From: Candidatus Zhuqueibacterota bacterium
GTDB taxonomy: Bacteria > Zhuqueibacterota > QNDG01 > JABMRT01
DNA: 64,000 nucleotides
Direction: 5' to 3'
Assembly (NCBI GenBank): GCA_013202295.1
Contig: JABMRT010000064.1
Location: 3,362 to 67,361 of the forward strand
Under the pieces are notes generated by a model. The model saw only the letters and a list, made by a program, of their open reading frames with translations. It was not told the DNA's origin and did no database searches. Every line of letters begins with the position of its first letter. Position 1 is the stretch's first letter. Below are positions 3,002 through 57,923 of the stretch, in pieces. The translations under genes were made by a program, and so were the position numbers.

Positions 3002-4162
3002 ATGAGTGCTAAAAAATTAAATAGAAGAGATTTTATTAAAACCTCCGCGGCGATTGGGGCTGTAGCTTTGACACCTGCTGTTTTTGGGGCTTTTTCCAGT
3101 TCTCCCGAAAAAACAGATGAATATTATAATACCCTTGCAGATGCATTGAACAAACTCCCCAATGCATTTCCCAGAACGGAATCCAATATCGAACTCCAGG
3201 TACTAAAAAAGATCTTTACTCCCGAGGAAGCCTGGCTATGTGGACAGCTCACCATTGAGTTTGAATCCATTGACAGTATTGCAGAACGTATCGGGCTCTC
3301 GGTTGAGGAAACCAGGGCACGTTTGGAGGAGGTGTCAAAGAAAGGATGCCTCTGGGGCAGTGTTCAACGGGGAGCTGTCAGACTGGCTCCTTTTATTGTC
3401 GGGATTTATGAGGCACAATTGTGGGAGATGGACCATGAACTTGCACATCTGGTGGAAGAGTATTTTGATGAGGGCGGTGTGGAGTTCATGCGGCCGCAAC
3501 CTGCCATTCATCGTGTGGTTCCCGCACAGAGTTCAACAAAATCAGAATGGATCCTTCCCCAGGATGATATTAAAGCGCTTCTGAAGACAATGGTATCCTT
3601 TCGTGTGCGTGATTGTATCTGTCGCGTCCAGCAGGAGCTAATTGGTGAGAGAAAATGTGATTATCCAAAGAATGTTTGTCTCAATTTCTCCCCGGTTGAA
3701 CGACCTCCGTCAGAGCGGGATCTCTCATTGGAAGAAGCGCTCGCTCTCATCGATGAAACGGAAAAAGTCGGATTGGTACACTCAGTCAGTAATGTCGCGG
3801 AAGGATTTTACTATGTCTGCAATTGCTGCGGGTGCTGCTGCGGGATTCTTCGTGGCATTACTGAGTATGGTATCGAAAAATCGGTTGCAGCTGCTAATTA
3901 TATTGCGAGTATTGATCCTGAAAAATGTGAGGGATGTGGCACCTGTGCCCAGAGATGTCATGTTGATGCAATATCGCCAGTTGATGGGAAATCCGTGGTC
4001 GATAAAGATAAGTGTATCGGGTGCGGGCTTTGTGTCACAGGTTGTCCACATGGGGTTGCACAATTGGAACGTAAACCCGACAATGAAATCATCCAGCCAC
4101 CCAAGGATTTCGGGACATGGGAGCATGAACGGCTGGTGAATCGGGGACTGAAGTCCATATAA
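3002..4162 (+). CDS. Tat-signal Fe-S protein (C-terminal 2x CxxCxxCxxxC ferredoxin-like motifs plus unusual CNCCGCCCG cysteine cluster), function unknown
   Basis: Twin-arginine signal (NRRDFIKTSAAIGAVALTPAVFGA). Cysteine motifs: YYVCNCCGCCCGILRG, CEGCGTCAQRC, CIGCGLCVTGCP. GGA RBS upstream. Confidence 0.6.
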   Translation: MSAKKLNRRDFIKTSAAIGAVALTPAVFGAFSSSPEKTDEYYNTLADALNKLPNAFPRTESNIELQVLKKIFTPEEAWLCGQLTIEFESIDSIAERIGLSVEETRARLEEVSKKGCLWGSVQRGAVRLAPFIVGIYEAQLWEMDHELAHLVEEYFDEGGVEFMRPQPAIHRVVPAQSSTKSEWILPQDDIKALLKTMVSFRVRDCICRVQQELIGERKCDYPKNVCLNFSPVERPPSERDLSLEEALALIDETEKVGLVHSVSNVAEGFYYVCNCCGCCCGILRGITEYGIEKSVAAANYIASIDPEKCEGCGTCAQRCHVDAISPVDGKSVVDKDKCIGCGLCVTGCPHGVAQLERKPDNEIIQPPKDFGTWEHERLVNRGLKSI

Positions 4163-4417: not shown

Positions 4418-7400
4418 TTAACGCCAGTCGAAGAGGTCTTCGCTGAATTTCATGCGGAATGTCATGTAGAAGTTGGAGTAGTTGTATTCTGAATAGCTGA
4501 AGTCCGGATCATCAAAATTCTTGACAATGTATCCGAGACCGAGCTGCATGTTTTTGCGGAGCAGATAATTAACATCCACGCCGAGTCCTGTTTTCATCTG
4601 ATTGATGGGTTGAAGCTGAACCACGCGGGTATCAATGCCGAGGCTCCAGCGTTTGAGCATTTCAATTTCCGTCCTTAACAAATAAAGCAACGTTGTAGTC
4701 TTGCTGCTGAATAAACCCTGTTCCTCATCCAATAATTGCCGCATGGCGAAACGCCCGCCGAATTCGAGCCATGAAAGTGGCTGGAAATATCCATGCATCG
4801 AAACAATGATGCGATCCAGCCGGGTTTGTGGTTGGACATGTGTGTTCTGATCCGTGAGATACTGAACCTTGGCCACGGTGTTAAAGACATCCTGTAATTC
4901 GGGTCGGTATGCGACACCGAGTTGATAATTGCCGCGAATCCATTTGTCCGTTGTTTTTCCGATAAAACGGGAATCGGAATGTTCCAGCTTGGTAATGACG
5001 CTGAGTCCATTCAGAATCTTGAACTGATTGCCCTGTGTGATAATGATTTTTCGTACGGTTTTATCCTTAAATAACTCAAATTTGCCCGTTGATTTCAATG
5101 GCATGGCAGGCAGGTATTCATAGGACATGGAGATTGCATTATGATCGGGTGTGGGAATTTCGAGTGAGTCGATGGTTGCCCGGCTTTCGAGCGCGACATT
5201 GAGTGTCAGGTCTTCACGTACTTTCCAAAGGTTTCTCAAACCAATACTTGCTCGATTTAGCTGTTCACCGGCCGCGCCGCCAATCTCATACTTGCCGTCC
5301 AGCTGTGTGTTGTCGAAGAGTTGGGAATCAAATCCAAGCACGGTCTGTGACTTGTTCAATCCCGATGTCAGGAACTTCTGTTTCACAAACAGGTTTAATT
5401 GCTCCGTTAATTTATATGACAAACCAATCGAAGTGCCCGTGGGTTTGGATTGATCCGTAGATCCCAGGTTCTGCTCATGTTCCACCAGGGTTGAAAGCCT
5501 GCTGCCCAATTCGTACGTTACTTGTCCACGAATCAGATTTGATTGATAGGAACGGGTCTGTGTAGAATCAGATCCTACTTGCTTGCGAAGCGCGTTTTCA
5601 TAGCCAAGCCGAAGCTTGGTTTTTTCATTGAGGCTGTATTGATAATGCGTATTGGCCACGCGGACATGGCTTTCGTTGACTGAACCTATCTGATTGAATT
5701 GACGGTAATACTCAGATTCTACTGTTCCGTACTTATCCAGTTTGAATGTGCCAGACGCGCCATATTTCTCTGCGCCCTGGTCGAAGCGGCTTCCGGTTTG
5801 GGAAGCATTCAGGAAGGTGTTGTCCATACTGCGATAGTAGCCTTCAAGATTGACCATGCGATGCGGTGCCAGTTTCAATTCGGTTTTCCAGGCCTGTCCG
5901 GATTGCTCGCCGCTTGAGAAATCCGAATTTCTCGAGTGTGCAAGTTCTCCATTTACAGTGATCCACGAGAAAATGGGCAAGGATAAATCCGTACCGTACA
6001 GCATGTAATTGGAGGGTTCTTTCTCCTCGATAATCAGTGAGGATCCCACTTTCAAACGACCCAGGAATTGTCCATCATATCGCACACCGCCGATTGCTGA
6101 TTTGTCTTCGTTTGACTCATACTCATACGCACATACGATATAGACCGGATTGCCTCTGCTGTCTACACTGGGTACAGGCTGTTTGAACATGAGTGTGCCG
6201 TCCACGAAATTGATGTCGTAATCCTGGTAACGGATTTTTTCTGTTGATTTCAACACTTTTTCCGGATGATAGCGATCACGAACTTCAATGCGGATTTTGT
6301 CTGAATTAATCGTGATTCGTCCGACATTCAGGTAATAATAGCCGGATATGCCTTCACCCCGGACCTCATCCAGTTTCATCTTGCGGTTATTGAGTGTGGC
6401 GAATCCAGTTAAAGTATGATCCCAGGCCTTTACATGTCCCTGGAATCCGGTGAACGATCGATCATACGCGGTAAATTCCGTGCCCCGCATTTCGGTGTTG
6501 AAATCTCCGAGAACCATGTAGGATTCATTCCGCTCAATCTTGCCGTAGAATTTGGACTGGGTCTGTGCATCGTAGCTGATTTGACTGGCATCTCCGTAAA
6601 GCGCGTATTGCTCGTTCGGGTCCAAATCGCGGAAGAGCTGGTCTTTCATTTCACGCTTGCTGTCATACGAGGCCGTGACATTGTATTGGTTAAATACACT
6701 GCCCTTGGCGTAGAATGCAGCATGTCTTGAAACCGGAACCTCTTTGATTTTGCCTTCTTCGTTGGTGTAATCGGCCATCGAGAACTTTGGTTCATGCATC
6801 TCGTCGCCGTTCGTTTGATAGAGGGATGCAGAAGCATCCGCCGACCCGACCAGAATGAACGATGCCAGTGCGGTTGTATACTGCACCGGGATTTCCAGGG
6901 TCGTGCCTTCCGCGTACACATCCAATGTGGCTGTGCCCACTTGGTCATCGGCCTGGATTGTGAACTCCAGTTTGCCGTCCGTCACAAGCAGTTGAATTCC
7001 CGCCATGTTGGTGTCCAAGTCGGTCTCAATTAGAGATCCTTCCGTCAGAGAGACTTTGGCTACCTTTATCCAAGGCACATTGTATCCCCATTCGTCCTGG
7101 AATTGTACACTCACCGATTGAAGCGATCTGCCATCCGCAGCGAGCGAGATTTTCTCAGGATTCACCTTGATTTGCTCAGGCGGGCCCACGACATGAATCT
7201 TGCGTGCATTTTGATAGATTTTATTTCCTGCACCCATGGCTTCCGTTCTCAATTCAATCGGGCCATACGGCACCGGAACATTGAGGAAGTCATAAATGCC
7301 GTCAATTCGGATTGTTCCTGAATCTGCCAATACTTCATTGACGTAAAGCCATGCAGGATTTCCGGCTTTGCCATAGATCGTGACAGCAATATGATGCAGT

Positions 7401-7510
7401 CCTTCCACAGCATCTTTCTTGGGATTCAGAATGACTACCTGTCCCTGAGCTGCCGTCATTGCTGTCAGGCAAATCCAAAAAACGAGCTTATGTAATTTAC
7501 GCCATTTCAT
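4418..7510 (-). CDS. Large secreted/outer-membrane-associated protein (signal peptide, N-terminal Ig-like region, long beta-rich C-terminal region); putative anchor/usher-like partner of the DUF11 proteins
   Basis: 1030-aa ORF with signal peptide MKWRKLHKLVFWICLTAMTAAQGQ. Its start codon overlaps the stop of the upstream DUF11 gene at 7510 (ATGA). The composition is beta-strand-rich with alternating hydrophobic residues. Confidence 0.5.
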   Translation of the reverse strand: MKWRKLHKLVFWICLTAMTAAQGQVVILNPKKDAVEGLHHIAVTIYGKAGNPAWLYVNEVLADSGTIRIDGIYDFLNVPVPYGPIELRTEAMGAGNKIYQNARKIHVVGPPEQIKVNPEKISLAADGRSLQSVSVQFQDEWGYNVPWIKVAKVSLTEGSLIETDLDTNMAGIQLLVTDGKLEFTIQADDQVGTATLDVYAEGTTLEIPVQYTTALASFILVGSADASASLYQTNGDEMHEPKFSMADYTNEEGKIKEVPVSRHAAFYAKGSVFNQYNVTASYDSKREMKDQLFRDLDPNEQYALYGDASQISYDAQTQSKFYGKIERNESYMVLGDFNTEMRGTEFTAYDRSFTGFQGHVKAWDHTLTGFATLNNRKMKLDEVRGEGISGYYYLNVGRITINSDKIRIEVRDRYHPEKVLKSTEKIRYQDYDINFVDGTLMFKQPVPSVDSRGNPVYIVCAYEYESNEDKSAIGGVRYDGQFLGRLKVGSSLIIEEKEPSNYMLYGTDLSLPIFSWITVNGELAHSRNSDFSSGEQSGQAWKTELKLAPHRMVNLEGYYRSMDNTFLNASQTGSRFDQGAEKYGASGTFKLDKYGTVESEYYRQFNQIGSVNESHVRVANTHYQYSLNEKTKLRLGYENALRKQVGSDSTQTRSYQSNLIRGQVTYELGSRLSTLVEHEQNLGSTDQSKPTGTSIGLSYKLTEQLNLFVKQKFLTSGLNKSQTVLGFDSQLFDNTQLDGKYEIGGAAGEQLNRASIGLRNLWKVREDLTLNVALESRATIDSLEIPTPDHNAISMSYEYLPAMPLKSTGKFELFKDKTVRKIIITQGNQFKILNGLSVITKLEHSDSRFIGKTTDKWIRGNYQLGVAYRPELQDVFNTVAKVQYLTDQNTHVQPQTRLDRIIVSMHGYFQPLSWLEFGGRFAMRQLLDEEQGLFSSKTTTLLYLLRTEIEMLKRWSLGIDTRVVQLQPINQMKTGLGVDVNYLLRKNMQLGLGYIVKNFDDPDFSYSEYNYSNFYMTFRMKFSEDLFDWR

Positions 7511-10272
7511 CAGAGTATATTAATCCGTTTTACTGCAAAATTGGCCTTTGCTACACCGGCCGGACTCAGCCGGATCAGCCGTGATTTTGGATCATTCAGA
7601 AAATCCATCGAATTACAGAAGAGATCCACTTCCTTTGGCAAAGTCCGTTCATTGAGCCGCAATACATGCTGTCCGGGATCCACATTGGGAATGGAAAATT
7701 TGCCGAACTCATCAGTAATGACACGGGTGCCATCCTCCATAATCAATTCGATCTGTCCGAATGTGGTTTCGTTGTCATCATGCATGCCGTTTTCGTTCTC
7801 ATCTTGATAAACCTTGCCGAAGATGAAGCCCCGATCATCAAACGCGCCTCGACGAATCATTATCGCTGCGATGGCTTCGTCTGAATAAATCCAGTCTCCG
7901 AACTCACATTGCCCGGCTGCGATCACACGGTTTTCGTGCTCACCCAATCCCACAGAAAGGCCTACAATCACCCGGTACTTTAACTGAAAACTCTTACCCG
8001 GTTGAAGTGTGTCTGTCACCATCCAGGTCATTGTTGAACCATTAATCCCTGGATCCATGAAGGGCTTGGATTCGAGACGACTTGTTCCGGTCTCATAGCG
8101 GAATCCTTCGGGCATCCGGTCCTTCACCTCAATGGGGGTCAACCAGCTCTCCTGACTTTTATTCTCCAAAGTCACTGTGTACGTCAGAATGTCTCCAACT
8201 TCGGATACCTTGCGATTGACCGTCTTTTTCACAGAGAGGAAGGGTTGAAGTAATTTGGTTCTTGCTTCAGACCGTTCATCATCCATCGTTTTTACTGTGT
8301 CCTGACTGAAATGGATTTCAGCACGGTTTTCGATTTCGCGAATACCCGGGCCAATATCCTCAACAACAATCGCACGTAGAATGATGGAATCAGGTTCAGA
8401 TGTCAACAGTCCGATGCGGCGCATTCGCAACTGATTTGTCACCGGATCATACGATTCCATTTCCAGAACGGGTTTCTGAACAATTTCATCCGGAAGGAGT
8501 CGTATTTCTCTGGGAAGATAATCCACGATATAAACTGTATCCATTACATTGTGTTCTGTCGTGCCATACCAGATGGTGTATGTGAGGGTGTCACCGACCT
8601 CAGCACGTTTCAGATCAACCTTCTTGTAGGCGAATACGGATCCTGAAATATCCACTGGCTCTGTGTTTGTGGCACATGAAGAGACGGCCACGGATGAGGT
8701 GTGGCTGTCAGAGAGCCATGCAGTATTCTCGATCAGAGTACCGAGTTCAACCGATTCACTGATTCGCGTCATCAAGGTGAGCGTATCCGTCAATCCGGGA
8801 ACCAGACTGGTTGCCGTCCAGATCACGATGTGTGACTCCGGATCGTAGACATGATCTCCTGACGCGTCGATAAATTCCAGAAATTCAGGAAGTGTATCTC
8901 GCAATACCGATTCATGTGCAATCGCAGTGCCGTGATTGACGCATGTGATGGTATAAATCAGAGTATCACCGGGTGAGGCAGTTGCTTGCGATTCCTTGAC
9001 CACAACCAGAACAGGTTGCGATGAAACCGTGATCGACCACAATGAAGTATCTTGCAGACCTTCAGAACAGGTGATTTTTGCAATGTTGTCAATCACCGTC
9101 TGATCATCAATAGGCATTTGGATGACCGTTTCGAGTTCGAGTGTATCGATGAACCCGGGCTGCATTTCCCCGAGATGCCAGACCACGGTATCGGCATTTG
9201 CGACCGGATCATGGGTGGCACTCAAATAAGACAGCCAACTCGACAGAGTATCCCGCACAATGACATTATGTACGGATCTGACACCGGAATTACCCACTGC
9301 GATTTTATACAGTATGGTATCTCCAGCTGTAAAGAGTGAATCATCCGCGAACTTTTCGATGAAGAGATTGCCGCCGTATCCCAAACAGGCAGAGGCTGTA
9401 TCCGCAGTATCAACTGCACCCTCCGCGCATTTCAAATAGGCGAAATTGAAGATCGAGTCTGTTCCTGCCTCAGCCAGAATTTCAACTTCCAGATCGATTT
9501 CGGATTCTTCTCCCGCAGCCAATGTGGGTACGATCCAATGAAACACGCCATTGGATGTATCCGCCGGTTCGGAGGAAGTAATAAAACGGGTCCCATGGGG
9601 AAGGGTATCGTTCACAACGAGCTGTGTCAGGGTCATGGGACCCGTATTTTTTATCCGTAAGCCATAGGTCAGGGTATCGCCGATGAAAGCAGATTCCTGA
9701 TCTACGGTTTTATCGATCTTTACTGCCGGCCAAGGCTGCCAAACCGTAGCAAGTGCTTTGGAATGGCCTCTGTAGCCGTCCTGGGTTTCGTAATACGCTG
9801 TATTGATTACAGAATCCTGGTAGACGGCCTCGATAATTTTACAATGTAATTGGATATTTACTACGCCACCGACTCTGATTTCCGGGATCAGCCATTCAAT
9901 GACATTTCCCGTGACCTGGCCGGTGGGATTTGACTGTACGTAAGACAGCATATGATCAAGCGAGTCCCGGATGGTCACATTGGTTAATGTGGATTCATCC
10001 ATATTTCTCACCTTGATATGATACTCGATTGTATCGCCCAATGCAACCAGCTGGGCATCGGTGGTTTTCTCGATGCTCACCAATCCCTCCCGGACCCGTG
10101 TCACGACCGTGTCGCTCGGCACTTCCATCACCACACCGCCACCGCCATCATAAGCGGCGTGAGCAACGTTGGTGATCTCCGTCCCTGGCGGAGTCTGGGC
10201 CCAACCTGAACCAAAGGCCAGGATGGACAGGAGCCCTAAGAGAAAGAGAGGTTTTTGGACGAAACGTTTCAT
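7510..10272 (-). CDS. DUF11 (conserved repeat domain) surface protein, 920 aa
   Basis: Signal peptide MKRFVQKPLFLLGLLSILAFGSGWA. Multiple DUF11-like modules (GDTLTYxI...N.G...). Conserved post-signal motif TPPGTEITNVAHAAYDGGGG...TRV shared with 10304..11965. Confidence 0.7.
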   Translation of the reverse strand: MKRFVQKPLFLLGLLSILAFGSGWAQTPPGTEITNVAHAAYDGGGGVVMEVPSDTVVTRVREGLVSIEKTTDAQLVALGDTIEYHIKVRNMDESTLTNVTIRDSLDHMLSYVQSNPTGQVTGNVIEWLIPEIRVGGVVNIQLHCKIIEAVYQDSVINTAYYETQDGYRGHSKALATVWQPWPAVKIDKTVDQESAFIGDTLTYGLRIKNTGPMTLTQLVVNDTLPHGTRFITSSEPADTSNGVFHWIVPTLAAGEESEIDLEVEILAEAGTDSIFNFAYLKCAEGAVDTADTASACLGYGGNLFIEKFADDSLFTAGDTILYKIAVGNSGVRSVHNVIVRDTLSSWLSYLSATHDPVANADTVVWHLGEMQPGFIDTLELETVIQMPIDDQTVIDNIAKITCSEGLQDTSLWSITVSSQPVLVVVKESQATASPGDTLIYTITCVNHGTAIAHESVLRDTLPEFLEFIDASGDHVYDPESHIVIWTATSLVPGLTDTLTLMTRISESVELGTLIENTAWLSDSHTSSVAVSSCATNTEPVDISGSVFAYKKVDLKRAEVGDTLTYTIWYGTTEHNVMDTVYIVDYLPREIRLLPDEIVQKPVLEMESYDPVTNQLRMRRIGLLTSEPDSIILRAIVVEDIGPGIREIENRAEIHFSQDTVKTMDDERSEARTKLLQPFLSVKKTVNRKVSEVGDILTYTVTLENKSQESWLTPIEVKDRMPEGFRYETGTSRLESKPFMDPGINGSTMTWMVTDTLQPGKSFQLKYRVIVGLSVGLGEHENRVIAAGQCEFGDWIYSDEAIAAIMIRRGAFDDRGFIFGKVYQDENENGMHDDNETTFGQIELIMEDGTRVITDEFGKFSIPNVDPGQHVLRLNERTLPKEVDLFCNSMDFLNDPKSRLIRLSPAGVAKANFAVKRINIL

Positions 10273-10303
10273 GCTTTGTTATTGCTATCCCGCATCAAGT
10301 CAA

Positions 10304-11965
10304 TTAGTTAATGGTGACTGTAAATGAAACAGAAACCGGTGTGGAGGTCGTTACAGTACCCAGATTAAAAGTGGCTGTGCCTGCAACACAGGACGCCTCA
10401 TCCGCATCTGCAAGATCGGTTTTACCCGCTGCACCGATTTTGAGACTGCCGGCTTTGTACGATGTATTCCCAGGAATGGGATCAGTGATCACCACAGTAC
10501 CTGCATCAGCAGAGCCGCTGTTGGTTACAGTCACCGTGTAGACCAGGTCGGTTCCAGGAGGCTGATCACCAGCCGGAAGGACTGATTTCACTAGGGCAAG
10601 GAAGGGTGCCTCCACATCCGTAGTCAAGGCCTCATCATCACTCGTTGTGCCGTTATCCGAAGTAAATGTGACTGTGGTGACGTCTTGCGTACCATCAGCC
10701 GTGCCACCGGGAATAGTTGCGATGGCGATAATCTGGACATTTTCACCTGAAAGAATATCGTCAGTATCCACTGTGCCATCCGCATCAGTATCTGCAAGCA
10801 CGCTGTCGTCGCTTTCGTCATCATTTTTCTGAGTGTCAAGATAAAACACCCAGGTCCAACCCTCACCCACATCTTTTGACCAGTTGTAATTGTCTGTACC
10901 ATTTCCAGTGTTTGTAACTACAAGGAGGTATTTTACGGTAGAGCCGGAGTCACCCACTTTATCAGGATCGACGCTGGTTACGGTCACGTCATAGGTGCGG
11001 GTGACATCGACGTCTTCACTCAGATCAACCTGAGTATAGGCTGTGCCCGCGCTGTTCTTGTAATTGATTTCAGCTGCATCTGAGATGGTACCCGTCGCAT
11101 CGTTATTCACAGTCACCTGAAATGTGATGATCACATTGCCACTTGCTGCCACTGTGCCCACATTGATTGTACCTGTGCCACTACTCCAGATGCCGTCACC
11201 CGGATTCACTGCGGCACCGGCACCACTGCCATCAGCATCGTATGTTGTAGTACCTGCATTGTATGTGGTATTTGCCGGGATATGAAGTGTCGCCACTGTG
11301 GTTAATGCGGATTCATTACCATCATTGTCAAAATCCACTGTATAGGTGATGGTTTCACCCGGGTTGTAAGTGGGCTGATCTGCAACGAGTGAACCGGTGA
11401 TTGTAGCCAGGGTTGCGGTTGTCACTACCACATCAGAGGTACTGACAGCACCAACATATTGTGATGTGGCTGTTATCTCGGATGTGGTCTGATCGTTTTG
11501 GCTGGCACTGACGTTGGTCACTCTTAGGAGTACATTCATAGCCTCATCCGCGTCAAGTTCGTAGGTGCCGGAAATGAGCAAATCAGTACCGTCATCATAG
11601 ACTCCCACAGTGCCCAAATCCTGATACAGAACGACTGTAAATTTAGTGTCATCTGTATTGGTCATGGCGATCGCGAAATCGTCTGTGAAGTTACCGGTAT
11701 TGGTGACCACATGCGAGTAAACCACGGAACTTTCGTTGGCTACAAACTGATCTGCAGGTAAAGTAATGGTCACTCCCGGGTCTTCTTTCACTCGGGTTTG
11801 AATGATGTTTGAAGACACGCCTGGCATCGGATTGCCGCCACCATCATTATATGTACCAGTGGCCTGGTTGGAAATCATTGTGCCGGCCGGCGTACCCGCT
11901 GCAAAAGACTGTGCCGCAAATCCGAGGATAAGCAGCACTGCGAGCAGTAAAGATGTACGTTTCAT
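10304..11965 (-). CDS. DUF11 (conserved repeat domain) surface protein, 554 aa (start reassigned to internal ATG with AAGGAGA RBS)
   Basis: The ORF-track start lies upstream in an A-rich leader. MKRTSLLLAVLLILGFAAQSFA signal peptide begins at RC of 11963-11965, 6 nt after AAGGAGA. Ends ...VSFTVTIN. Confidence 0.7.
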   Translation of the reverse strand: MKRTSLLLAVLLILGFAAQSFAAGTPAGTMISNQATGTYNDGGGNPMPGVSSNIIQTRVKEDPGVTITLPADQFVANESSVVYSHVVTNTGNFTDDFAIAMTNTDDTKFTVVLYQDLGTVGVYDDGTDLLISGTYELDADEAMNVLLRVTNVSASQNDQTTSEITATSQYVGAVSTSDVVVTTATLATITGSLVADQPTYNPGETITYTVDFDNDGNESALTTVATLHIPANTTYNAGTTTYDADGSGAGAAVNPGDGIWSSGTGTINVGTVAASGNVIITFQVTVNNDATGTISDAAEINYKNSAGTAYTQVDLSEDVDVTRTYDVTVTSVDPDKVGDSGSTVKYLLVVTNTGNGTDNYNWSKDVGEGWTWVFYLDTQKNDDESDDSVLADTDADGTVDTDDILSGENVQIIAIATIPGGTADGTQDVTTVTFTSDNGTTSDDEALTTDVEAPFLALVKSVLPAGDQPPGTDLVYTVTVTNSGSADAGTVVITDPIPGNTSYKAGSLKIGAAGKTDLADADEASCVAGTATFNLGTVTTSTPVSVSFTVTIN

Positions 11966-12162
11966 TTTGATTCTCCTTTGATCAATATTATTTGTTCTGT
12001 TATTTTGTTTTCTTCCTGTTTCTGATAAAACTTGATGAGCCATTGTTTTTTTTAGGGTGGATCGTGGCCCGGCGATCCGCGAGTTGTTACCTTTCGGGAT
12101 ACCATAAGCATCCTCCTTTCTTTTCTTTATATATATATTGCCTGTATTATTCATTTTTTGCT

Positions 12163-12633
12163 TTACTCAACTACAACTTTGAATGAGAGAGTTTTTTGAC
12201 TGTCAGCAGGAATGGATTCCCGTATCATCCATTTGATATGTGTGATTTCACCAGGTCGGGTGTCGCGAGCGTTTTGATCTCCGGATGCGGGCAGCCTGAC
12301 GGGCCATTCTGAATAGCGTATTCCCTGATTTACAGAGAAGAGGATCCTGCAATTCTCACCTGCGGCTGATTCTGCGATGTACTGCACGCCTTGCGGGATG
12401 GGATCCACAATTTCCGGATCGGTCATTACGCCATCGCCTGTGTTTTTGGCGAGGATGACGTACTCGATTGTGTCGGATGGGGCGTAAACCACATCCGCAC
12501 CGCTTGTTTCTTCAGCGGTCATGTTCACTTTGCGATCCTGGATTTCGATTTCCAGTTTTGGCTGGCCTTGCGCATACAGACTTGCTGAAATGAGCAGCAG
12601 TCCAATGATCCAGATGTTCCTAAGGCTTTTCAT
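12163..12633 (-). CDS. Small secreted single-DUF11-domain protein
   Basis: Signal peptide MKSLRNIWIIGLLLISASLYAQGQ, followed by DTIEYVILAKNTGDGVMTDPEIVDPIPQGVQYI. Lies 14 nt downstream of the giant gene. Confidence 0.6.
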   Translation of the reverse strand: MKSLRNIWIIGLLLISASLYAQGQPKLEIEIQDRKVNMTAEETSGADVVYAPSDTIEYVILAKNTGDGVMTDPEIVDPIPQGVQYIAESAAGENCRILFSVNQGIRYSEWPVRLPASGDQNARDTRPGEITHIKWMIRESIPADSQKTLSFKVVVE

Positions 12634-12647
12634 GGTATTCTCCTTGA

Positions 12648-15600
12648 TTAGTTGATCGTCACTTCAAATGAAATTGAGCCGCTGCCACCCGGAGCGAGTA
12701 ACGCTCCACGCTGGAACTGAAGGTGGGTGACTGGAGCCGTTTGAGAGGCGTTGTAACTGCCTCCGCCATCATGGCTGAATAAAATGGTCGTGCCACTGCC
12801 TGTGGCCGAATTTTCGACATATGTTGTGTTCGGTGGAACTTGATCTAAAATGATAATTGTGGTCGCGTCCGCGTCCCCTGCGTTGGAATAATCCACAGTG
12901 TAGGTGAGCGTGTCGCCGGGTGCCGCGTTGGCCTTGTCCACGCCCTTCACGAGTACGAGAAGCGGCGCGGGATCAGGATCACCTGTGCCCTGAATTGCGA
13001 AGGTATAGGGATTTTCATCCGTATCGTCATTTGCGATGGAAATGGTTGCACTGCGTACACCGGTCGCGCTTGGATCAAAAGTGATTTGGAATGTGGTGCT
13101 GTCTCCGTATTCGATCATGTTCGATGGAGTAATGGTCACGCTAAAGTCGGCTGCATGTGTGCCGCCAATGGTTACATAGGGCGAAGCGTCCGTCAGATTC
13201 AATGTATCGCTGCCGATGCTGTGGATTTTGAATATCCTCGTGATCGCTGGGCCTGAAAGTTCTGTGTTCCCAAAGTCAGTGAAATCCGATGCATCGGGTG
13301 TGACATCTCCACTTGTGATGGAAATCTTGTTGCCCTGAACATCCATTTCTGGAACAGCTGTACCTGTGCCCTGAATTGCGAAGGTGTAGGGATTCTCATC
13401 CGAGTCATCATTGGAAATCGAGATGGTAGCCTGCCGCAATCCCTCAAGGGTTGGATTGAAAGTGACCTCAAACGTGACAGATCCGCCGCCCGAACTTACT
13501 GTGCTGGATGCAGGCTGCTGGCTGACAAGGTAATCACCTGCATTGGCTCCGCCGATTTCGATGATGGGTATGCCAGTCAGATTGAGATCATCGCTGCCTG
13601 TATTATAGATAGTAAACGTATGAACCGCTGTTCCGGTTAAAATGTCCTGACTGCCAAATTCTGTGTCGTCACTGACGCCGGGTGTGGCATCGCCATCCAC
13701 AATCGAATTACCCAGTCCCTGAACATCCATCTCAGCAGCTGCGGTACCCGTGCCCTGAATCGAGAAGTTGTATGGATTTTCATCCAGATCTGTATTGGCA
13801 ATAGAGATTGCCGCAGAGCGCAATCCGGTAGCAGATGGATCAAATGTAACCTGAAATGTAACGGTTCCACCACCGGAAGTTACTGTTGAAGAAGCAGGCT
13901 GTACATTCACAGTAAAATCACCGGCGTGCGCGCCGCTAATTTGGACGATGGGATTATCGGTCAGATCGAGATCTGAACCACCCGTGTTCTCTATAGTATA
14001 GGTGCGAATAACCGAACCGATGGCCAAATCCGTATTTCCAAAATCAGAGTGATCCAAAACATCTGGTGTGTTATCGCCATCCGCAATAGAAACACTGTTG
14101 CCCTGAACATCCATTTCGGGAGCGAGTCCGGTTCCCTGAATGTCAAAGTTGTAGGGATTTTCATCCGGATCGTTGTTGATAATGCTAATCGATGCCTGTC
14201 GTGTCCCGCCCGCACTCGGATCAAAGGTGACCTGGAATGTCGTACTCGAAGCCGGTGTCACTGTACCGGCAGGCTGTACATTCACGGTAAAGTCACTTGC
14301 ATGTGTTCCTGAGATTGCTACAGTTGGAGTTCCATTTAAGGTCAGATTGGCTGCACCTATATTAAATATAGTAAAGGTGTGCACCACGGTTCCTGATGAG
14401 ACGAGTATACTTCCAAAATCAGTGTCATCCGTAACATCGGGTGTAACATCGCCATCTGTAATGGAATTGCCCAGGCCCTGAACATCCATTTCAGGTGAGG
14501 TAAGCTGATACATACCCGCATCCACAGAGGGATTAAAGTTGTTGAGCGTCAGGGTGTAATAGTTGGTATAGATCTGTCCGTTGTTGACATCGCTGTCCAG
14601 AGCATCATTGCCACCCAGATTTGCCGGGCTGAATACATATCCGCCCGGCAGATTGGTAAATTCTGCTCTGTAATTTCCGGGTGGTGTCACTCCTGCGAAG
14701 AAGTAAACACCGTAAGCATCTGTGGTTGTGGTTTGGACAATAGTGCCATTGGCCTGAGAACGGAGATTGACTGTAACACCCGGTACACCGGTTTCACCTG
14801 TATCCTGAATGCCGTCCTGATTTGTGTCATCCCATACATAATCACCGATACCGGTTGTTATTACGCCGGCATCCCAGGAGTCTTCGATTACTCCCACACT
14901 TATGGTGATGTTTGCTGTTCGTCCCATGGCCGCATTGGCATCACTGTCAATTGCATCATTGCCGCCTACATCTTGTGTTGTAAATGCGAATCCAGCAGGC
15001 AGATTGCTGAATATGAGATAGTATTCTGATGGCGAAAGATTCTGAAATTTATAGGAGCCATCCGCAGCCGTTGTGGTTGAATTAAGAAAAGTGTCATCAC
15101 TTTCATAAATCGAGACAGTGACACCAGACAGCCCCAATTCACCTGCGTCTTGAAGACCATTGTTGTTATAATCGATCCAGACAAAATCACTGATCGTACC
15201 TGAATTGGGCATAGGCGCTGCGGCAAGTGGACAGGAGGCGCCATCGTTCACACTTAAATTGCCTGTACCTGTACCGATGTAAACACTTGCACCTGTAGTG
15301 CGATTGACCTTGTAAAGCCGTCCGCTCAGATTGTTGCCGACATATACATACCCATCATTGGCTGTCCAGGTTGCGCCCCAGGAACCGTTATTGAGTGCAG
15401 CATCGTAATCGTCGGCCAATTTGCCGGTTACGGCCCGTGTTCCGGCATTGCCGGTAGTCGGATCGAACCAATGCAGGTCCTTGTTGCTTACACCGTAGAA
15501 GATCCCATCGGCGGCCATATATGCGATATCTAAGGCGGCATAAGCAGTTCCAGAAATCGGCATGGCCGCAGACATCACATCTGTACTGATATCGTAAACA

Positions 15601-18600
15601 GCGTATTGCGTACCGGGACCACTAACGAAATACAGGTTCCCCGAAAGGTCACAGTCGCCTTTCCATGAGGCGATAGGTGAGGTCGCGGAAAGAACGACAA
15701 CTGTTCCGGTCGCGTCAATACGAACGACATGATCTCCAACGATTCCTGCGTCACGTTCCTGTCCATAGAGCAATCCGTCTTCAATGTTATAGCCGACTGC
15801 GTTCAGCCGATATCCGGCTGAGTTAATGATCGTATAGGTATAAGGATTGGTGCTGGCATCGAGATAGGTGATCTTGCCGTCTGTATCCATGATGTGGAAG
15901 AAATTAGGTACACAGGCGAGGGGAGCGCCGGGTCCGATGCCATTGCCCATGATTGCGAATGAGTAGGGGCTTTCATCAGAGTCGTCGCTTGTAATTGAAA
16001 GGGATGCGGTGCGCAATCCAATCATCGAAGGATCGAATGTGATTTCAAAGGTCACTCTGCTGCTGGATGCAATCGGAGAACTCGGCTGTATTGCTACAGA
16101 GAAGTCTGCCGCATCTGCGCCAAGAATCGAAACAAAAGGTGATCCAGTCAATGTGAGACTGGAACTGCCAAGGTTTTCAATGGTGTAAGTGACAGTAACG
16201 GTCGTACTATTTACATCGACGTCGCCGAAATAGGTGCTGTCTGTTGGGCTCGGTGTGTTGTCACCGTTCGCAATGCTGAGGCTGTTGCCCTGCACATCGA
16301 TTTCAGGGGCCATGGTGCCGGTACCCTGAATGTCGAAGTTATAGGGATTCTCATCTCCGTCATCGTTGTCAATACTGATCGAAGCAGACCTGAGACCCGT
16401 TGCAGAGGGATCAAATTCCACGGTAAATTCAACGGAACTTCCGGGAGAGAGGGGGGAGCTGGGCTGTAATGTGACGGTAAAGTCCGCTGCATGCGTGCCG
16501 GATATAACCACTTTCGGTGATCCGGTCAGGTTGAGATCGCCGGTGCCGTTGTTCTCAATCCAGAAGCTCTGGCTGGCTGTGCTGCCACCGATATCCACAC
16601 TGCCGAAATCCGTTCCATCCGCAGCGGCAGGTGTGTTGTCCCCATCCACGATTTCGATGGTGTTGCCTGTGACTGCCATTTCACCCAATCCAGAACCTGT
16701 ACCCTGAATATCAAAGTTGTACGGATCTTCATCTGAATCGGTGTTTGCGATGCTTATGGTTGCGGTTCTGAGACCGGAATCAGATGGATCGAATTTTACT
16801 ATAAATGTCGTACTGCCTCCACCTGAGGCAACCGGACTGGTTGGTTGTGCAGTCACAGTGAAGTCCGCTGCATGCGCACCACTGATTACTACTGCCGGGA
16901 CATCCGAAAGTGTCAGGCTTGCAGAGCCGTTGTTGATTATGGTGAATGTGTGTGAATCTGAACCTGATGCGACTGTGATGCCACCAAAATCTGTATCATC
17001 CGAAACATCGGGGGTGGCGTCCCCATCCACAATCGAACTGCCATTGCCCTGCACATCCATTTCAGCGGCAGCAGTTCCGGTTCCCTGAATGCTGAAGTTG
17101 TATGGATTTTCATCCGAATCATCATTTGCTATGCTGATGGTCGCTGACCGAAGCCCCGCCACGGTGGGGTTGAATTCCAAAGTAAACGTGGTAGTGCCGC
17201 CGCCCATGGCAATGGGTGTGGACGGATTGGCTGTTAATGAGAAGTCTGCGGCATGGGTGCCACCAATGATCACATAAGGTGATGCATCGGTTAGATTCAG
17301 ATTGAGTGAGCCCGAATTTTCGATGGTGAATGTATGTGAGACAGTTCCAGTCGTGATATCTGCATTGCCGAATTCTGTGTCATCAGAAGCATCCGGAGTT
17401 GCATCTCCATCCGAGATCGAACTGCCATTGCCCTGTACGTCCATTTCGGCGATTGCAGTTCCGGTTCCCTGAATGCTGAAGTTGTATGGATTTTCATCCG
17501 AATCATCATTTGCGATACTTATGGTTGCTGATCGAAGTCCCACAGCCGAGGGATTGAATTCCAGGTTAAATGTAGTAGTGCCGCCACCCGAAGCGACTGG
17601 CGTCGAAGGATTGGCTGTGAGTGTAAAGTCCGCCGCATGGGTTCCGCCGATGGTCACATAGGGAGATGCATCCGTTAGATTCAGATCGGCATTCCCGGTA
17701 TTTTGAATTGTGAAGGTATGTGAAACAGTTCCAGTCGTGATGTCCACATTGCCATATTCTGTGTCATCAGAATCATCCGGAGTTGCATCTCCATCCGTGA
17801 TCGAACTGCCATTGCCTTGTATATCCATTTCTGGAAATGCTGTGCCTGTGCCTTGAATGCTGAAGTTATAAGGATCTTCATCCGAGTCATCATTGGCGAT
17901 ACTGATTGTGGCTGTGCGCAGCCCTGCTACAGAAGGATCGAATTCCACAGTAAATGTGGTTGTGCCGCCACCCAAAGCAATGGGTGTGGATGGATTGGCT
18001 GTTAATGAAAAGTCTGCGGCATGGGCTCCGCCGATGGTCACATAGGGAGATGCATCCGTCAAGTTTAGATCAGCATTTCCGGTATTCTGAATTGTGAATG
18101 TGTGTGAAACGGTTTCAGTGGTAATATCTGCATTTCCAAATTCCGTATCATCTGCTGCATCGGGTGTGGCGTCTCCATCTGCGATGGAAGCACCATTGCC
18201 CTGCACGTTCATCTCAGGTGCGGTAATACCCGTACCCTGAATGCTGAAATTGTAGGGATTTTCATCCAAATCATTGTTGGCGATGCTGATTGTCGCGGTT
18301 CGCAAACCCGTAGCAGAGGGATCGAATTCCACCGTTAATGTGGTCGTGCCGCCACCTGAGGTGATGGGTGTGGATGGATTGGCTGTCAAAGAAAAGTCAG
18401 CAGCATGTGTACCGCCGATGGTCACATAGGGAGATGGATCGGTTAACGATAGGTCTAGTGAACCAGTATTTTCGATGGTGAATGTATGAGAGACGGTTTC
18501 GGTCGTAATGTCCGCGCTGCCAAATTCAGTATCATCCGCGACATCGGGGGTTGCATCGCCATCCGCGATAGATGCTCCGTTGCCCTGTACATCAATTTCA

Positions 18601-19670
18601 GGCTCAAGTACTTGATTGAGTGTGAAGGTATCGTAATCATACCAGGTTCCGGCGCTTCGCGGATCTTCAACGACGATGGTGTAGGTCCCGGAAACTGCAG
18701 AGGCATCAATTGTCCATGTGCTTGCTGATGAGAGATTACCACTTGCGTCAGTTGTGACTGTACCGGTCCACATGACTGTACTGGAAGCATTCTCGACACG
18801 GATATTCCGTACACCGCTGGCGTAATAGCTTGAACTTGAAGGCGGCCATCCTTCGCCGCTTACAGTTAAGGTTTCACCAGTGTTCCAGGTGCCACTTGTT
18901 GAGTAGGGCGCACTGTCGCGTGTGTCATATACAAAACCGCGACCGCCGCTTGTGCCCGGTGTGGTCGTACCTGATAAACTGAATGCAGTCGCCATAGAGG
19001 TTGTAGCTACAGAGGCATCGTATATCGTGAGGTTGTCACCGGTTGAGGTGAAGGCAAACATGCGCAGTGGCGTGTCTGCAGAAATGTCATTGGCAATACC
19101 TGCCTGAAGTGCGGTGAATGGAACCTGCACCTCAAGATCATTGCCATTCTCACGGACATATCCTACACCTTCCGGATCAGTTATGCTGAAATCCTGAGTT
19201 TCGCCGGGATTGTAGTAGTAGGTGCGAAGTGTTTCAGTACCTACGCCATCTACCCGAATATCCCAGTCAATGCTGCCGTCTCCATCCACATCAAAAGCGA
19301 TGTGCCAGTAACCGTCTCTGAGTTGGCCCCCACCCACTGGGCCACGGTCCAATTCAATCCTGAAAAAAAGACTTGTACTGGTTGAATTGAAAAAGGCGTT
19401 GCCATCTACATCGAGTTCTCTTGTGAGGCCGTCATCGGCATCCCATTGATCATCCCAGTTATTTGTGTACATTGTGTACCAGCTGCCGGGCCATGCTTCC
19501 TGTGCTTGAAGCGTGACTACTGAGGCTAAAAAGAAGAATAGTATAAATAAAATTCTCAGGAGAGAAAGTGCAGAATTAGATAGAAGCTTTGTTGCTGGGG
19601 AGATGAGACCGGCTAAAGTCTGTTTTTGATTTGTTGCTTGCAGTGTAAGGATCCTTTTGTTTTTAAACAT
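12648..19670 (-). CDS. Giant (2340 aa) repeat adhesin: 11 ~115-aa Ig-like repeats (E(M/I)DVQGNGxSIxDGDATPD...NPYNFxIQGTG, choice-of-anchor-D-like by recollection), central beta-propeller-like and Cna-B/SdrD-B-like segments, C-terminal DUF11 domain
   Basis: Single ORF running 19670->12648 with ATG at RC 19668-19670. Repeated motifs are visible in the translation, with an AT-rich promoter region upstream (19671-20060). Ends ...[12 protein letters not shown]. Confidence 0.75.
13010..14395 (-). repeat. Second block of 4 tandem Ig-like coding repeats in the giant adhesin gene
   Basis: [19 protein letters not shown]..., [19 protein letters not shown]..., [19 protein letters not shown]..., [19 protein letters not shown]... 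units precede the C-terminal DUF11 domain. Confidence 0.65.
16190..18610 (-). repeat. Block of 7 tandem ~340-385-bp coding repeats (first Ig-like repeat array) in the giant adhesin gene
   Basis: Seven consecutive E(M/I)(D/N/A)VQGN...[13 protein letters not shown] units. The DNA-level similarity is high enough that spurious opposite-strand ORFs recur with near-identical sequences at 16937, 17297 and 17681 ([18 protein letters not shown]...). Confidence 0.7.
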
Positions 19671-20061
19671 GTTTACTGCTGTTACTGAGCTCGAGCATTA
19701 CTCAGGCAAAGGGTGTGCCATATTTCTGACTATAAAATGAATAAAGAATACATTGCTGATGTGATTTATTCGTGCAATAAAAACAAAAGGTTATGTATGG
19801 CTGCTATTTTAAAGTATATTATTAATTATAGAAGGATTTCAATGTGAAATTTCAAGGTGTGGCAAAGTGTGAATAATGAAATGATAAAGCCAGTTTTATA
19901 TTACAGTTGTGTCACAAATATGTTAAAAAATTCATTGAACCATCCGAATTTTCACATTTTGTATAAAAAATATTTTGAGATTTATGAAAAAAATTGTGAT
20001 GAATTATGGCATGATGCATCGAGGTACATATCATACTATAGGAAAGCTGAAATTCAGTTGC

Positions 20062-20099
20062 TAAAAAATAATAAAGTGCCGGGATAATTTCCGGCACTT
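20062..20099 (-). terminator. Rho-independent terminator ending the minus-strand ABC-permease operon
   Basis: Stem AAGTGCCGG (20074-20082) pairs with CCGGCACTT (20091-20099). On the minus strand the hairpin is followed by TTATTATTTTTT. Confidence 0.55.
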
Positions 20100-20201
20100 T
20101 GTTCCCAATGCAGGTGAGGGAGGGAGAGGAAGTTTTATTGTTTAGTTAAACATGGTGCATTGAATATTTAAACATTGAACATCCAATATGGATGTTAGAA
20201 T

Positions 20202-21863: not shown

Positions 21864-21872
21864 ATTCTGGCC

Positions 21873-23111: not shown

Positions 23112-23145
23112 AAAATCATCCAGAAATTAAATTGAAATAGAAAGA

Positions 23146-24243
23146 TCAGGTGATTTCCTCAAATTTTTTCTCAAGCACTTCTTCGCCCTCTTCCAATCCG
23201 GAAATCACCTCAATGAGAATGGCATCACTTAGACCGGTTTCGATTGACCGTTCTTCGGGCGTTTCTCCGTCCGGATTGGGCAATTGAACAAAAGCCGAAT
23301 CATTCCGAAACGTGATCACCCGCTCGGGAAGGGTCAGCACGCTATCTTTTTGAGAAATGATAATATTGGCATTGGCTGAAAATCCGGCACGGAGGACTGC
23401 ATCTCCGGCGTCTGTGATTTTAATTTCCACAGGAAACACTGTGGCATTGTCTACTTTTAATGCTTTTAGTGAAATCAGGCTGACCTGGGCTTCAACGGTT
23501 TTTCCAGGCAGGGCACCGATAATCAACTGGGCATTCATACCTTCTTTAATTTTGCCCACATCGATCTCGTCTACTGTACCCTTAAAGAGGAGATTGTCCA
23601 TATTGGCCATTTTCATTAGTTCTGTGCCGGCCTGATAGCTTGTCAATGGCACAACCGGGTCACCCACATTGATGCTCTTCTCAAGGATGTATCCGGTAAT
23701 TGGCGATTTAATGACTGTCTCAATGTCTGTGCCTTCGATGTTGATTTTGCCTTTTTCAATCAGGTCGAGTCGTTCTTCAGCCATCTTTTTATTGAGTGCC
23801 GCCTGATCGTGTAACTGTTTCATCTGCTCATACTCATAATCCGAGATCAAGCCTTCGGTTTGGAGCTGACGGCTTCTTACAAGCTCTGCTGCAAGTGTTT
23901 TGTATGCGATATCCATTCTTTCAACATTGCGTGTCGTTTCGGCCAGCTCAAGCGGAGTCGGGTCAGGTTTGACTTCAAGGAGAGGATCACCCGCATTTAC
24001 AAAATCGCCGACGCCGACAAACAGATTCTTAACCACGCCTGATACTTTTGATTTAACAGCGATCTCATTGAAAGGCTCAATCGAACCTACAGCAAGCGCT
24101 TTGTCGATGATATTGTTTTTCTCTACTTTTACGGTGCTTACTTCACTGTTCCCTTTATTCCCTCTGGAAGCCACAACCACGGCGATGATCACGACCAAGA
24201 TCACGATGATACCGATCCAGAGTACGGGTTTTTTCATTTTCAT
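23146..24243 (-). CDS. HlyD/MacA-family periplasmic adaptor subunit
   Basis: N-terminal signal-anchor MKMKKPVLWIGIIVILVVIIAVVVA, coiled-coil central region and beta-barrel/lipoyl-like motifs typical of membrane-fusion proteins. Confidence 0.65.
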   Translation of the reverse strand: MKMKKPVLWIGIIVILVVIIAVVVASRGNKGNSEVSTVKVEKNNIIDKALAVGSIEPFNEIAVKSKVSGVVKNLFVGVGDFVNAGDPLLEVKPDPTPLELAETTRNVERMDIAYKTLAAELVRSRQLQTEGLISDYEYEQMKQLHDQAALNKKMAEERLDLIEKGKINIEGTDIETVIKSPITGYILEKSINVGDPVVPLTSYQAGTELMKMANMDNLLFKGTVDEIDVGKIKEGMNAQLIIGALPGKTVEAQVSLISLKALKVDNATVFPVEIKITDAGDAVLRAGFSANANIIISQKDSVLTLPERVITFRNDSAFVQLPNPDGETPEERSIETGLSDAILIEVISGLEEGEEVLEKKFEEIT

Positions 24244-57922: not shown

Positions 57923-57923
57923 T

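Follow-up and report, generated by a model that had tools for sequence, protein, structure and literature searches.

Five co-oriented genes on the minus strand, at 4418..19670 of a 64,000-nt stretch of DNA from Candidatus Zhuqueibacterota bacterium (contig JABMRT010000064.1; the whole stretch is referred to as the window), probably encode a modular surface fibre, a pilus-like fibrillar adhesin. Its Sec-exported parts would be joined by trans-completion of a split CLIPPER domain, as suggested by purely computational evidence, the protein sequences and the structural models described below. Three of the products are named after the places they would take in the fibre (tip, shaft and base), a 156-aa protein is encoded between tip and shaft, and the last gene encodes a 1030-aa protein that models as a giant outer-membrane beta-barrel. 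An earlier, sequence-only reading of the window had singled out this cluster as a candidate for an undescribed surface-fibre or envelope assembly system, which is supported by the barrel model, the conserved gene neighbourhood and the fusion of the barrel with a DUF11 protein in relatives. The five genes are listed below; all positions except those of the shaft follow the list of open reading frames (ORFs).

12648..19670, minus strand: tip (giant adhesin) gene, 2340 aa
12163..12633, minus strand: gene of the 156-aa protein
10304..11965, minus strand: shaft gene, 553 aa (the long ORF, 10304..12154, is 616 aa)
7510..10272, minus strand: base gene, 920 aa
4418..7510, minus strand: gene of the predicted outer-membrane barrel protein, 1030 aa

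The domain annotation proposed in the sequence-only reading was performed, with PF01345 and TIGR01451 as profiles of the DUF11/CLIPPER family. It finds DUF11 in four of the proteins, and no Pfam or NCBIfam model covers the 1030-aa protein. The tip contains 11 choice-of-anchor D domains of the HYDIN/ASH-type Ig class (NCBIfam, 807 bits), two SdrD_B domains and a C-terminal DUF11 domain (E = 2.8e-8), and its central region has no annotation. The 156-aa protein has a single weak DUF11 match (TIGR01451, 31 bits with a cut-off of 24; Pfam PF01345, 21.8 bits, just below cut-off), and the shaft has two DUF11 domains (E = 9.2e-8). The base matches DUF11 with E = 1.2e-71 and contains 5-6 domains by Pfam/NCBIfam and six complete CLIPPER domains by our own model; it also matches TIGR04226, the isopeptide-forming fimbrial domain (RrgB D2), and ends in a weak SdrD_B-like domain.

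DUF11 has been renamed CLIPPER, and the crystal structure (PDB code: 9IFR) is that of a CnaA-like stalk domain (PMC12617251). The domain forms an intramolecular Lys-Asn isopeptide bond that is catalysed by Asp, with the Lys on the first strand, an Asp/Glu, and the Asn on the penultimate strand (PMC12617251). The picture of DUF11 in the sequence-only reading needs updating in that the domain is now known as an isopeptide-bonded stalk (PMC12617251); no published assembly system for it was found. In the complete domains of loci that contain a homologous barrel gene (barrel loci), the triad residues are retained: Lys in 167/199, Asp in 194/199 and Asn in 194/199.

A CLIPPER hidden Markov model (HMM) was built from 65 complete domains of base proteins, in which complete domains cover positions 3-123. 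The C-terminal domains of the tip, the shaft and the 156-aa protein all end at position 88 of ~123, unlike the six CLIPPER domains of the base, which are complete. The part that is absent from these three acceptors comprises the last two strands, the first of which bears the isopeptide Asn. The sequence-only reading had described near-identical C-terminal strands in the giant protein and two DUF11 proteins. This is correct for the tip (ISFEVTIN) and the shaft (VSFTVTIN), whereas the end of the 156-aa protein (LSFKVVVE) is similar and the base ends differently; the shared strands mark a CLIPPER domain that is cut before its last two strands. The acceptor domains and the candidate donor peptides are located as follows.

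12651..12959, minus strand: tip acceptor domain, residues 2238-2340, with Lys (LVLVK) and Asp (IILDQ), ending ISFEVTIN
10307..10621, minus strand: shaft acceptor domain, residues ~449-553, with Lys (LALVK) and Asp (VITDP), ending VSFTVTIN
11789..11896, minus strand: shaft donor peptide, mature residues 24-59, GTPAGTMISNQATGTYNDGGGNPMPGVSSNIIQTRV, with Asn33
10093..10197, minus strand: base donor peptide, residues 26-60, QTPPGTEITNVAHAAYDGGGGVVMEVPSDTVVTRV, with Asn35

The mature N-termini of the shaft (GTPAGTMISNQATGTYNDGGG...IIQTRV) and of the base (TPPGTEITNVAHAAYDGGGG...VVTRV) resemble the two missing CLIPPER strands, and the N-terminal peptide of the base alone matches HMM positions 93-117. 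When a donor peptide is appended to an acceptor, the alignment reaches positions 108-119 with a gain of +6.7 / +11 bits; 50 shuffled peptides appended as a control give +0.6 +/- 1.4 bits, and appending the barrel protein's own N-terminus yields no gain. The Pfam DUF11 and DUF7619 models show the same trend. In the multiple alignment, the joined acceptor and donor span the length of a complete domain, and the Lys, Asp and Asn columns coincide. An unsplit paralogous domain within the shaft (...ITFQVTVN-NDATGTISDAAEINYKNSAG...) mirrors the combination of ...VSFTVTIN and GTPAGTMISNQATGTYNDGGG... at the two ends of the protein. In the terminal domains, the Lys and the Asp are thus located in the acceptor and the Asn on the other protein, and the Asn strand is absent in 95/95 acceptor domains of barrel loci. 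The parts are distributed asymmetrically: the tip has only an acceptor, the base has only a donor, and the shaft has both, so that it could in principle polymerise.

The AlphaFold model of the 920-aa base is the discriminating test, since this protein has a donor but no acceptor of its own; N-terminal strands that were part of its first domain should be placed with confidence. In the monomer, the six CLIPPER domains are modelled with a predicted local distance difference test score (pLDDT) of 80-93, whereas residues 16-62 have a pLDDT <50 and the donor is left unplaced, although this stretch is among the best conserved of the family. The orphaned donor of the model fits the reading that it serves another protein. 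A Foldseek search with the base model returned only generic multi-Ig rods.

The termini are also the conserved part of the shaft. Among 120 shaft homologues from Marinimicrobia, Syntrophales, Deltaproteobacteria and Acidobacteriota, which share 30-40% identity overall, the N-terminus is nearly invariant, with ...FAA followed, right after the signal peptide, by GTPAGTxIxNxAxxxYxDANGN. The C-terminus stops at ...FxVT(I/V) plus N (56 homologues), D (48) or K (10). For the triad residues, the counts are 111/116 (donor Asn), 119/120 (acceptor Asp) and 97/120 (acceptor Lys). Base proteins share the related N-terminus WAQ followed by TPxGTxITNTAxxxYDGG. These features are specific to barrel loci, where 89/169 DUF11 ORFs end at the truncation point, vs 0/27 multi-DUF11 proteins outside such loci; the donor motif occurs in 1/27 of the latter.

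The fifth protein, for which a sequence search of the PDB gives just a weak Ig-domain match, was modelled with AlphaFold2 from a 35-sequence alignment (mean pLDDT 80.5, predicted template-modelling score 0.67). The structure prediction, which the sequence-only reading had called for, yields a signal peptide, a pair of Ig domains and, after them, a very large beta-barrel of the outer-membrane type.

6875..7438, minus strand: pair of Ig-like domains at the N-terminus of the barrel protein, residues 25-212, similar to the C-terminal domain of GH2, to invasin D3 and to intimin D0-D1
4442..6856, minus strand: predicted beta-barrel region, residues 219-1023, ~40 predicted strands

The predicted barrel contains 32 long regular strands in residues 455-1023 and ends in a strand typical of outer-membrane proteins (...YMTFRMKF), and a small beta insert at ~345-470 carries the most conserved motifs of the family. 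The best Foldseek matches in the PDB are likewise very large barrels of the outer membrane, namely SlpA (Deinococcus), MtrB, SprA of the type IX secretion system (T9SS), the usher FimD and LptD. Their template-modelling (TM) scores are all ~0.2, so the barrel appears to be of its own kind. A family profile was searched against 1.84 billion representatives of 50% identity clusters and matched 5,629 clusters, 2,633 of them at E <= 1e-30. The family is characterised by the motifs GxG[IV]SG[YF]Y[YF]L and [FL][TAS][AKT]Y[ND]R[TS]F[NT]G in a ~1000-aa module that is fused or adjacent to a DUF11 protein, and weak matches to Big_1 and Invasin_D3 also occur in some relatives. All members of the family are either called 'hypothetical' or wrongly labelled 'TonB-dependent receptor', and the nearest homologues of the window protein belong mostly to Marinimicrobia. 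Of the best 150 representatives, about 100 are 1,400-4,000 aa long with the barrel module at the C-terminus, and their N-terminal extensions contain DUF11 and SdrD_B/CarboxypepD_reg domains in the order found in the 920-aa base. As the fusion occurs in about two thirds of these relatives, the 920-aa and 1030-aa proteins are the halves of what is usually a single polypeptide.

The gene set recurs in dozens of genomes. In a sample of 50 species-level genomes with >= 9 kb of sequence upstream of the barrel gene, a DUF11 or donor ORF directly abuts the barrel gene upstream in 50/50. The two results that the sequence-only reading had named as contrary to its proposal, a 1030-aa protein that models as a soluble multi-Ig protein and a neighbourhood that is not conserved, were thus both looked for, and neither was found. 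Loci of Marinimicrobia run from a tip (acceptor only, 250-2,300 aa) through a ~165-aa protein (acceptor-like only), a shaft (donor and acceptor) and a base (donor and 4-10 complete domains) to the barrel. Moraxella osloensis (CP083409.1, 794-810 kb) encodes a tip of 1593 aa, a small protein of 158 aa, a shaft of 908 aa and a base-barrel fusion of 2010 aa; the shaft begins with AQAA followed by APTAGSNISNIATASY and ends with KFVVKIDN. Gallionella has the same four parts, and the asymmetric distribution of donors and acceptors over tip, shaft and base recurs in all three groups. Fused barrel members are found in the cultured Moraxella osloensis, Agitococcus lubricus and Gallionella. A different order is observed in Bacteroidota/Ignavibacteria (loci L047-L085), where a ~640-aa donor base is followed by the barrel, a 2,300-3,300-aa acceptor-ended tip, a ~375-aa acceptor-ended protein and the next gene. 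Between loci, the length of the tip is highly variable (250-3300 aa).

Plasmid members occur in Acinetobacter haemolyticus, Sinorhizobium meliloti, rhizobia and Deinococcus (17 Deinococcus plasmids carry relatives). On the mobilizable plasmid p4 of Acinetobacter haemolyticus (locus L088; CP085288.1, 190-204 kb), the fused base-barrel is 49% identical to the Moraxella protein, and an OmpA-family gene and a further DUF11 gene come after it; in the shaft region, four short coding sequences are annotated, which suggests a disrupted gene or sequencing errors. On the conjugative accessory plasmid NZ_CP021807.1 of the model rhizobium Sinorhizobium meliloti (locus L089), the stop codon of the gene for a >3,300-aa DUF11 protein overlaps the start codon of the gene for a 1,261-aa barrel protein labelled 'hypothetical'. 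The barrel carries the label 'TonB-dependent receptor' in other rhizobia.

In chaperone-usher pili, the tip is assembled first, and each new subunit gives its N-terminal extension to the previous one. The asymmetry of tip, shaft and base has the same polarity, and a fibre of the order tip <- shaft(n) <- base is therefore proposed. The N-terminal hairpin of one protein would insert into the truncated C-terminal domain of the preceding one, and the chain would contain either a polymerising shaft or the three proteins at 1:1:1. The pairing of donors with acceptors in trans, and the order of pairing, are inferred from the sequences. With the Lys and the Asp on the acceptor and the Asn on the donor, a Lys-Asn isopeptide bond that forms spontaneously, with the conserved Asp as catalyst, probably locks each joint in the manner of a natural tag/catcher pair. 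The base would be coupled to the barrel, with which it forms one polypeptide in most relatives, and the barrel would anchor the fibre. With ~32-40 predicted strands, the lumen should exceed that of the 24-strand usher, which makes it a likely conduit for folded Ig-type domains. The barrel would most likely serve as an usher-like pore that takes such domains to the surface, where the fibre would be located. The operon encodes no ATPase, sortase or protease, and folding and bond formation would drive the assembly.

The 156-aa protein consists of a signal peptide and one CLIPPER-like domain that ends at the common truncation point (...LSFKVVVE), with no donor. The ~160-aa protein is a conserved core part of the loci, with a length of ~158-165 aa in Marinimicrobia, Moraxella and Gallionella and the family motif PKLEL..KVNMT.AE...PGD.I.Y...DP(I/V)P...THIRW...LEF.V.VK-stop. 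The isopeptide Lys is ambiguous in the window protein, as it is not seen in the MAFFT alignment and the column is left unaligned by hmmalign; judging from the alignment of the family, the invariant Lys in 'xKVN' of the marinimicrobial homologues may be its equivalent. The Asp is clearly missing only from the versions in Moraxella and Gallionella. Possible roles of the protein are those of an alternative distal cap, of an initiator, or of a chaperone in the periplasm that keeps hold of donor strands.

Several observations weigh against the proposed fibre. The bit gain conferred by the donors is modest in absolute terms (7-11 bits), and the sole PDB sequence match that spans the junction is weak (4HSQ, E = 0.05). 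This match, the best of the joined domain, is to a pilin-type 'putative fimbrial subunit' (4HSQ/4HSS), and the joined acceptor-donor profile did not retrieve the CLIPPER structure 9IFR in the PDB search. Covariation of the Lys and the Asn was sought in the shaft homologues and not found; the few homologues without the donor Asn keep the Lys. A subclade of Syntrophales / Deltaproteobacteria (P0192-P0239) has C-T-P-T at the position of the acceptor Lys. Detection of the parts with strict HMM thresholds is incomplete across the 50 genomes, where a donor-only base was identified in 33/50, a large acceptor-only tip in 33/50, a shaft in 25/50 and the small protein in 20/50, counts that are lower bounds. 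Lastly, OmpA domains on some base proteins place part of the assembly in the periplasm. In P0248, an OmpA peptidoglycan-binding domain (1146-1245) lies between the rod and the barrel module (1451-2433), and in other relatives it forms the C-terminus of a separate base protein; the C-terminal end of the base would therefore be periplasmic, and the rod must cross the outer membrane.

As a separate observation, the C-T-P-T subclade retains the donor Asn and the Asp, and its deviating sequence may reflect misalignment or another cross-link chemistry.

An alternative that we regard as unlikely is an autotransporter-like display, in which the barrel exports and anchors only the fused or adjacent DUF11 protein. 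The other DUF11 proteins would be independent secreted adhesins, the N-terminal motif would be an export or targeting signal that the barrel recognises, comparable to the TPS domain of two-partner secretion, and the truncated C-terminal domains would be stable alone. The passenger-then-barrel order of most family members does mimic type V secretion, and the N-terminal motif is shared by exactly those proteins that would need the barrel. However, this explanation does not account for the identical internal stop position in three proteins, for the homology of the N-terminal motif to precisely the missing strands, isopeptide Asn included, or for the retention of Lys and Asp in domains that would have no Asn partner. 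The tip, moreover, lacks the supposed export motif. A CnaA-type sandwich minus two strands is unlikely to be stable alone, as is known from split pilin domains, which also argues against such a display.

A further step down in probability is an envelope tether, in which the barrel and the DUF11 rods link the outer membrane to peptidoglycan or form an S-layer-like scaffold, with rods that are periplasmic or lie along the outer membrane's inner face. SlpA is the best structural match of the barrel, OmpA peptidoglycan-binding domains lie beside the barrel module in some base proteins, and relatives are carried by the 17 Deinococcus plasmids, all of which would suit a tether. The TM-score of SlpA is, however, just 0.20, and neither an S-layer homology (SLH) domain nor a coiled coil is present. 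The tip has 11 choice-of-anchor D domains, a class otherwise found on proteins with T9SS C-terminal, PEP-CTERM or LPXTG anchors (according to NCBIfam naming), and the tips are hypervariable in length, as expected of exposed adhesins.

We consider it improbable that the shaft is completed in cis, its N-terminal strands folding back into its own C-terminal domain to give closed monomers and no chain. The shaft does carry both halves, and AlphaFold commonly self-complements donor-strand pilins, a tendency that was counted in favour of this possibility. But the acceptors of the tip and the 156-aa protein have no donor, and the donor of the base has no acceptor, which requires partners in trans; in addition, a multi-Ig rod would have to bend back on itself. 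A chance cluster of unrelated surface proteins, to which the annotation of all of them only as hypothetical or DUF11 would lend itself, is scarcely credible in view of the gene fusion, the start/stop overlap, and the content and order that are conserved across phyla.

The proposed split-CLIPPER fibre resembles the chaperone-usher pili (FimD/PapC, FimC/PapD) in its logic: Sec-exported subunits, an incomplete Ig-type fold that the next subunit's N-terminal extension would complete, a tip with an acceptor only, a shaft with both and a terminator or anchor with a donor only, and a large outer-membrane barrel encoded in the same operon. The barrel proteins also share accessory soluble Ig-like domains and a conserved insert in the barrel sequence. 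In the window proteins, this donor-strand logic is read from sequence and a monomer model: a truncated acceptor, a homologous donor, and a donor that AlphaFold leaves unplaced. The components are unlike those of chaperone-usher pili in that ~40 strands are predicted instead of 24, two strands are donated instead of one, and the acceptor is the C-terminal CnaA-type CLIPPER domain of a long multi-domain protein rather than a whole small pilin. Furthermore, the joint in the window has an isopeptide triad, and the last subunit is fused to the barrel in most relatives. The 1030-aa protein does not match the usher family FimD/PapC (PF00577), its Foldseek match to FimD (9fw9_D) is generic with a TM-score of 0.22, and no match to the PapD-family chaperone was found in the five proteins or their neighbours.

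There is precedent for an exchange of donor strands that is then locked by an isopeptide. Both steps have been shown for BsaA fibres of the TasA family in Clostridium perfringens, where the lock is intermolecular (bioRxiv 10.1101/2024.11.04.621531), and for the threads of archaea (Sulfolobus) (PMC9715654). As in the window proteins, an N-terminal donor strand enters the neighbour, and the triad of an Asn, an acidic residue and a Lys is split across subunits. In contrast to the CLIPPER/CnaA fold here, however, these fibres have the TasA/camelysin or thread fold, they occur in monoderm bacteria or archaea, which lack an outer membrane, no barrel accompanies them, and they are homopolymers of small subunits rather than a tip-shaft-base chain. 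No TasA/Peptidase_M73 match was found with Pfam, and the principle of a split triad alone is common to BsaA and the window proteins.

Sortase pili (SpaA/SpaD, RrgB) also contain CnaA/CnaB domains with Lys-Asn isopeptides and covalently joined subunits, in line with the TIGR04226 match of the 920-aa base. Unlike in these pili, the joining in the window would be autocatalytic through a split domain, and the host is diderm. No sortase domain is encoded in the operon or its flanks, and the operon proteins, with their ...TVTIN ends, have no LPXTG, hydrophobic tail or pilin-motif lysine. When the terminal Asn- or Asp-strand of such a domain is moved to a separate peptide, spontaneous covalent ligation results, as in isopeptag/pilin-C, SpyTag/SpyCatcher and SnoopTag/SnoopCatcher. 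Engineered split pilin domains of this kind are reviewed in PMC6539128. These are laboratory constructs from Gram-positive CnaB-type or pilin domains, whereas the pairs here would be natural, CnaA-type CLIPPER domains that exchange two strands for fibre assembly.

The CLIPPER adhesin B9T28_05395 of Acinetobacter silvestris (9IFR) belongs to the same domain family and shares the Lys/Asp/Asn isopeptide and the role as a stalk; it has an OmpA-like anchor domain (PMC12617251), as do some base proteins of the barrel family. Unlike the terminal domains described here, the domains of that study are complete within single chains, and a text search of it found no mention of an outer-membrane barrel partner or a split domain (PMC12617251). 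Type V secretion (intimin, invasin) is similar in that the fused relatives consist of an Ig-type passenger and a C-terminal barrel, some with a peptidoglycan-binding domain (LysM in intimin). The barrel is, however, ~3x larger than the 12-16 strands of autotransporters, and extra separate subunits are present. No Pfam match to autotransporter or intimin families was found in the 1030-aa protein or its fused relatives. The FimA/Mfa families of Bacteroidota type V pili gave no match either. A full-text literature search, the coverage of which excludes most subscription journals, returned nothing that describes a split CLIPPER domain, this family of barrels or the operon. While the CLIPPER building block is known, a donor-strand pilus logic built from parts that are unrelated to chaperone-usher pili and to exchange-and-lock fibres would be new.

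Beyond the window, a broader proposal is put forward tentatively: the loci may represent a separate and widespread class of diderm pili, with self-ligating split-CLIPPER subunits, a dedicated giant barrel usher unrelated to the chaperone-usher, type IV, type V and curli systems, and a ~160-aa initiator, cap or chaperone. There is a substantial chance that experiments would establish a distinct pilus class. The proposed fibre would in any case explain how a very large group of DUF11/CLIPPER and choice-of-anchor proteins that have no known anchor are displayed on diderm bacteria. It would also add a non-homologous route, based on donor-strand completion and a probable covalent lock, to the short list of Gram-negative pilus assembly routes, and every locus would offer protein engineers natural peptide-protein ligation pairs that are orthogonal to one another. 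The operon is present in culturable bacteria, on the Moraxella osloensis chromosome, an Acinetobacter haemolyticus plasmid and a Sinorhizobium meliloti accessory plasmid, and hence the proposal is directly testable.

All five minus-strand ORFs described by the sequence-only reading are present. The 14-nt gap between the tip gene and the 156-aa gene and the overlap of the barrel ATG with the base stop codon at 7510 are as it described, and four of its protein lengths are correct; the third protein is 553 aa, not 554. The shaft is assigned this length because the ATG at 11965 is preceded by a good ribosome-binding site and an identical 553-aa protein, labelled 'DUF11 domain-containing protein [candidate division KSB1 bacterium]', exists at NCBI. 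The shaft and base genes are separated by 31 nt. Two sites upstream of the tip gene were recorded.

19813..19842, minus strand: promoter-like site TTGAAA-18-TATACT upstream of the tip gene, a consensus match only
20073..20100, minus strand: intrinsic-terminator-like hairpin with a 10-bp stem followed by a T run, which closes the upstream gene

The gene on the 3´ side of 4418 runs convergent to the barrel gene. With the terminator at 20073..20100 upstream and the convergent gene downstream, the five genes therefore form one transcription unit, a single operon apart from the upstream MacB/HlyD/TonB genes. The N-termini of all five proteins resemble Sec type-I signal peptides, as judged by eye and in agreement with the earlier description, and carry no lipobox Cys. 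The domain search also bears out that the T9SS sorting domain (PF18962 and relatives) is absent from the five operon proteins and present in the product of 815..2959.

The spacer between the 156-aa and shaft genes (11966..12162) is A-rich and, with 197 nt, unusually long vs the 14 nt, 31 nt and overlap found elsewhere in the operon. Named close homologues of the barrel are nearly all from Marinimicrobia / Neomarinimicrobiota, vs the KSB1 label on the shaft, and the source bin may carry a wrong taxonomic label.

On the plus strand, the 714-aa product of 815..2959 combines three GEVED domains and one PKD domain with a C-terminal sorting domain of the T9SS; the host therefore has T9SS cargo beside the non-T9SS cluster. 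The product of the gene convergent with the barrel gene (3002..4162, plus strand) is 386 aa long and has 4Fe-4S dicluster domains as well as a twin-arginine signal. The region 20619..26990 (minus strand) contains two MacB/FtsX-type permeases, an HlyD adaptor, two TonB_C proteins and an extracytoplasmic function (ECF) sigma factor, near which a 154-aa ORF without a Pfam match may encode an anti-sigma factor. A functional link of the operon to these MacB/HlyD/TonB genes was considered and ruled out, as a strong terminator lies between them and they are not conserved beside other loci. Two patches of low GC content, 40001..42000 (0.35) and 56001..58000 (0.36) vs ~0.46-0.50 elsewhere, may be acquired islands. 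The first contains a Fic/DOC gene (40411..41553), and the second contains an ATP-binding cassette (ABC) ATPase (56308..57165) followed by an ORF without a Pfam match (57149..57922); another such ORF (58292..59065) lies just outside the second patch.

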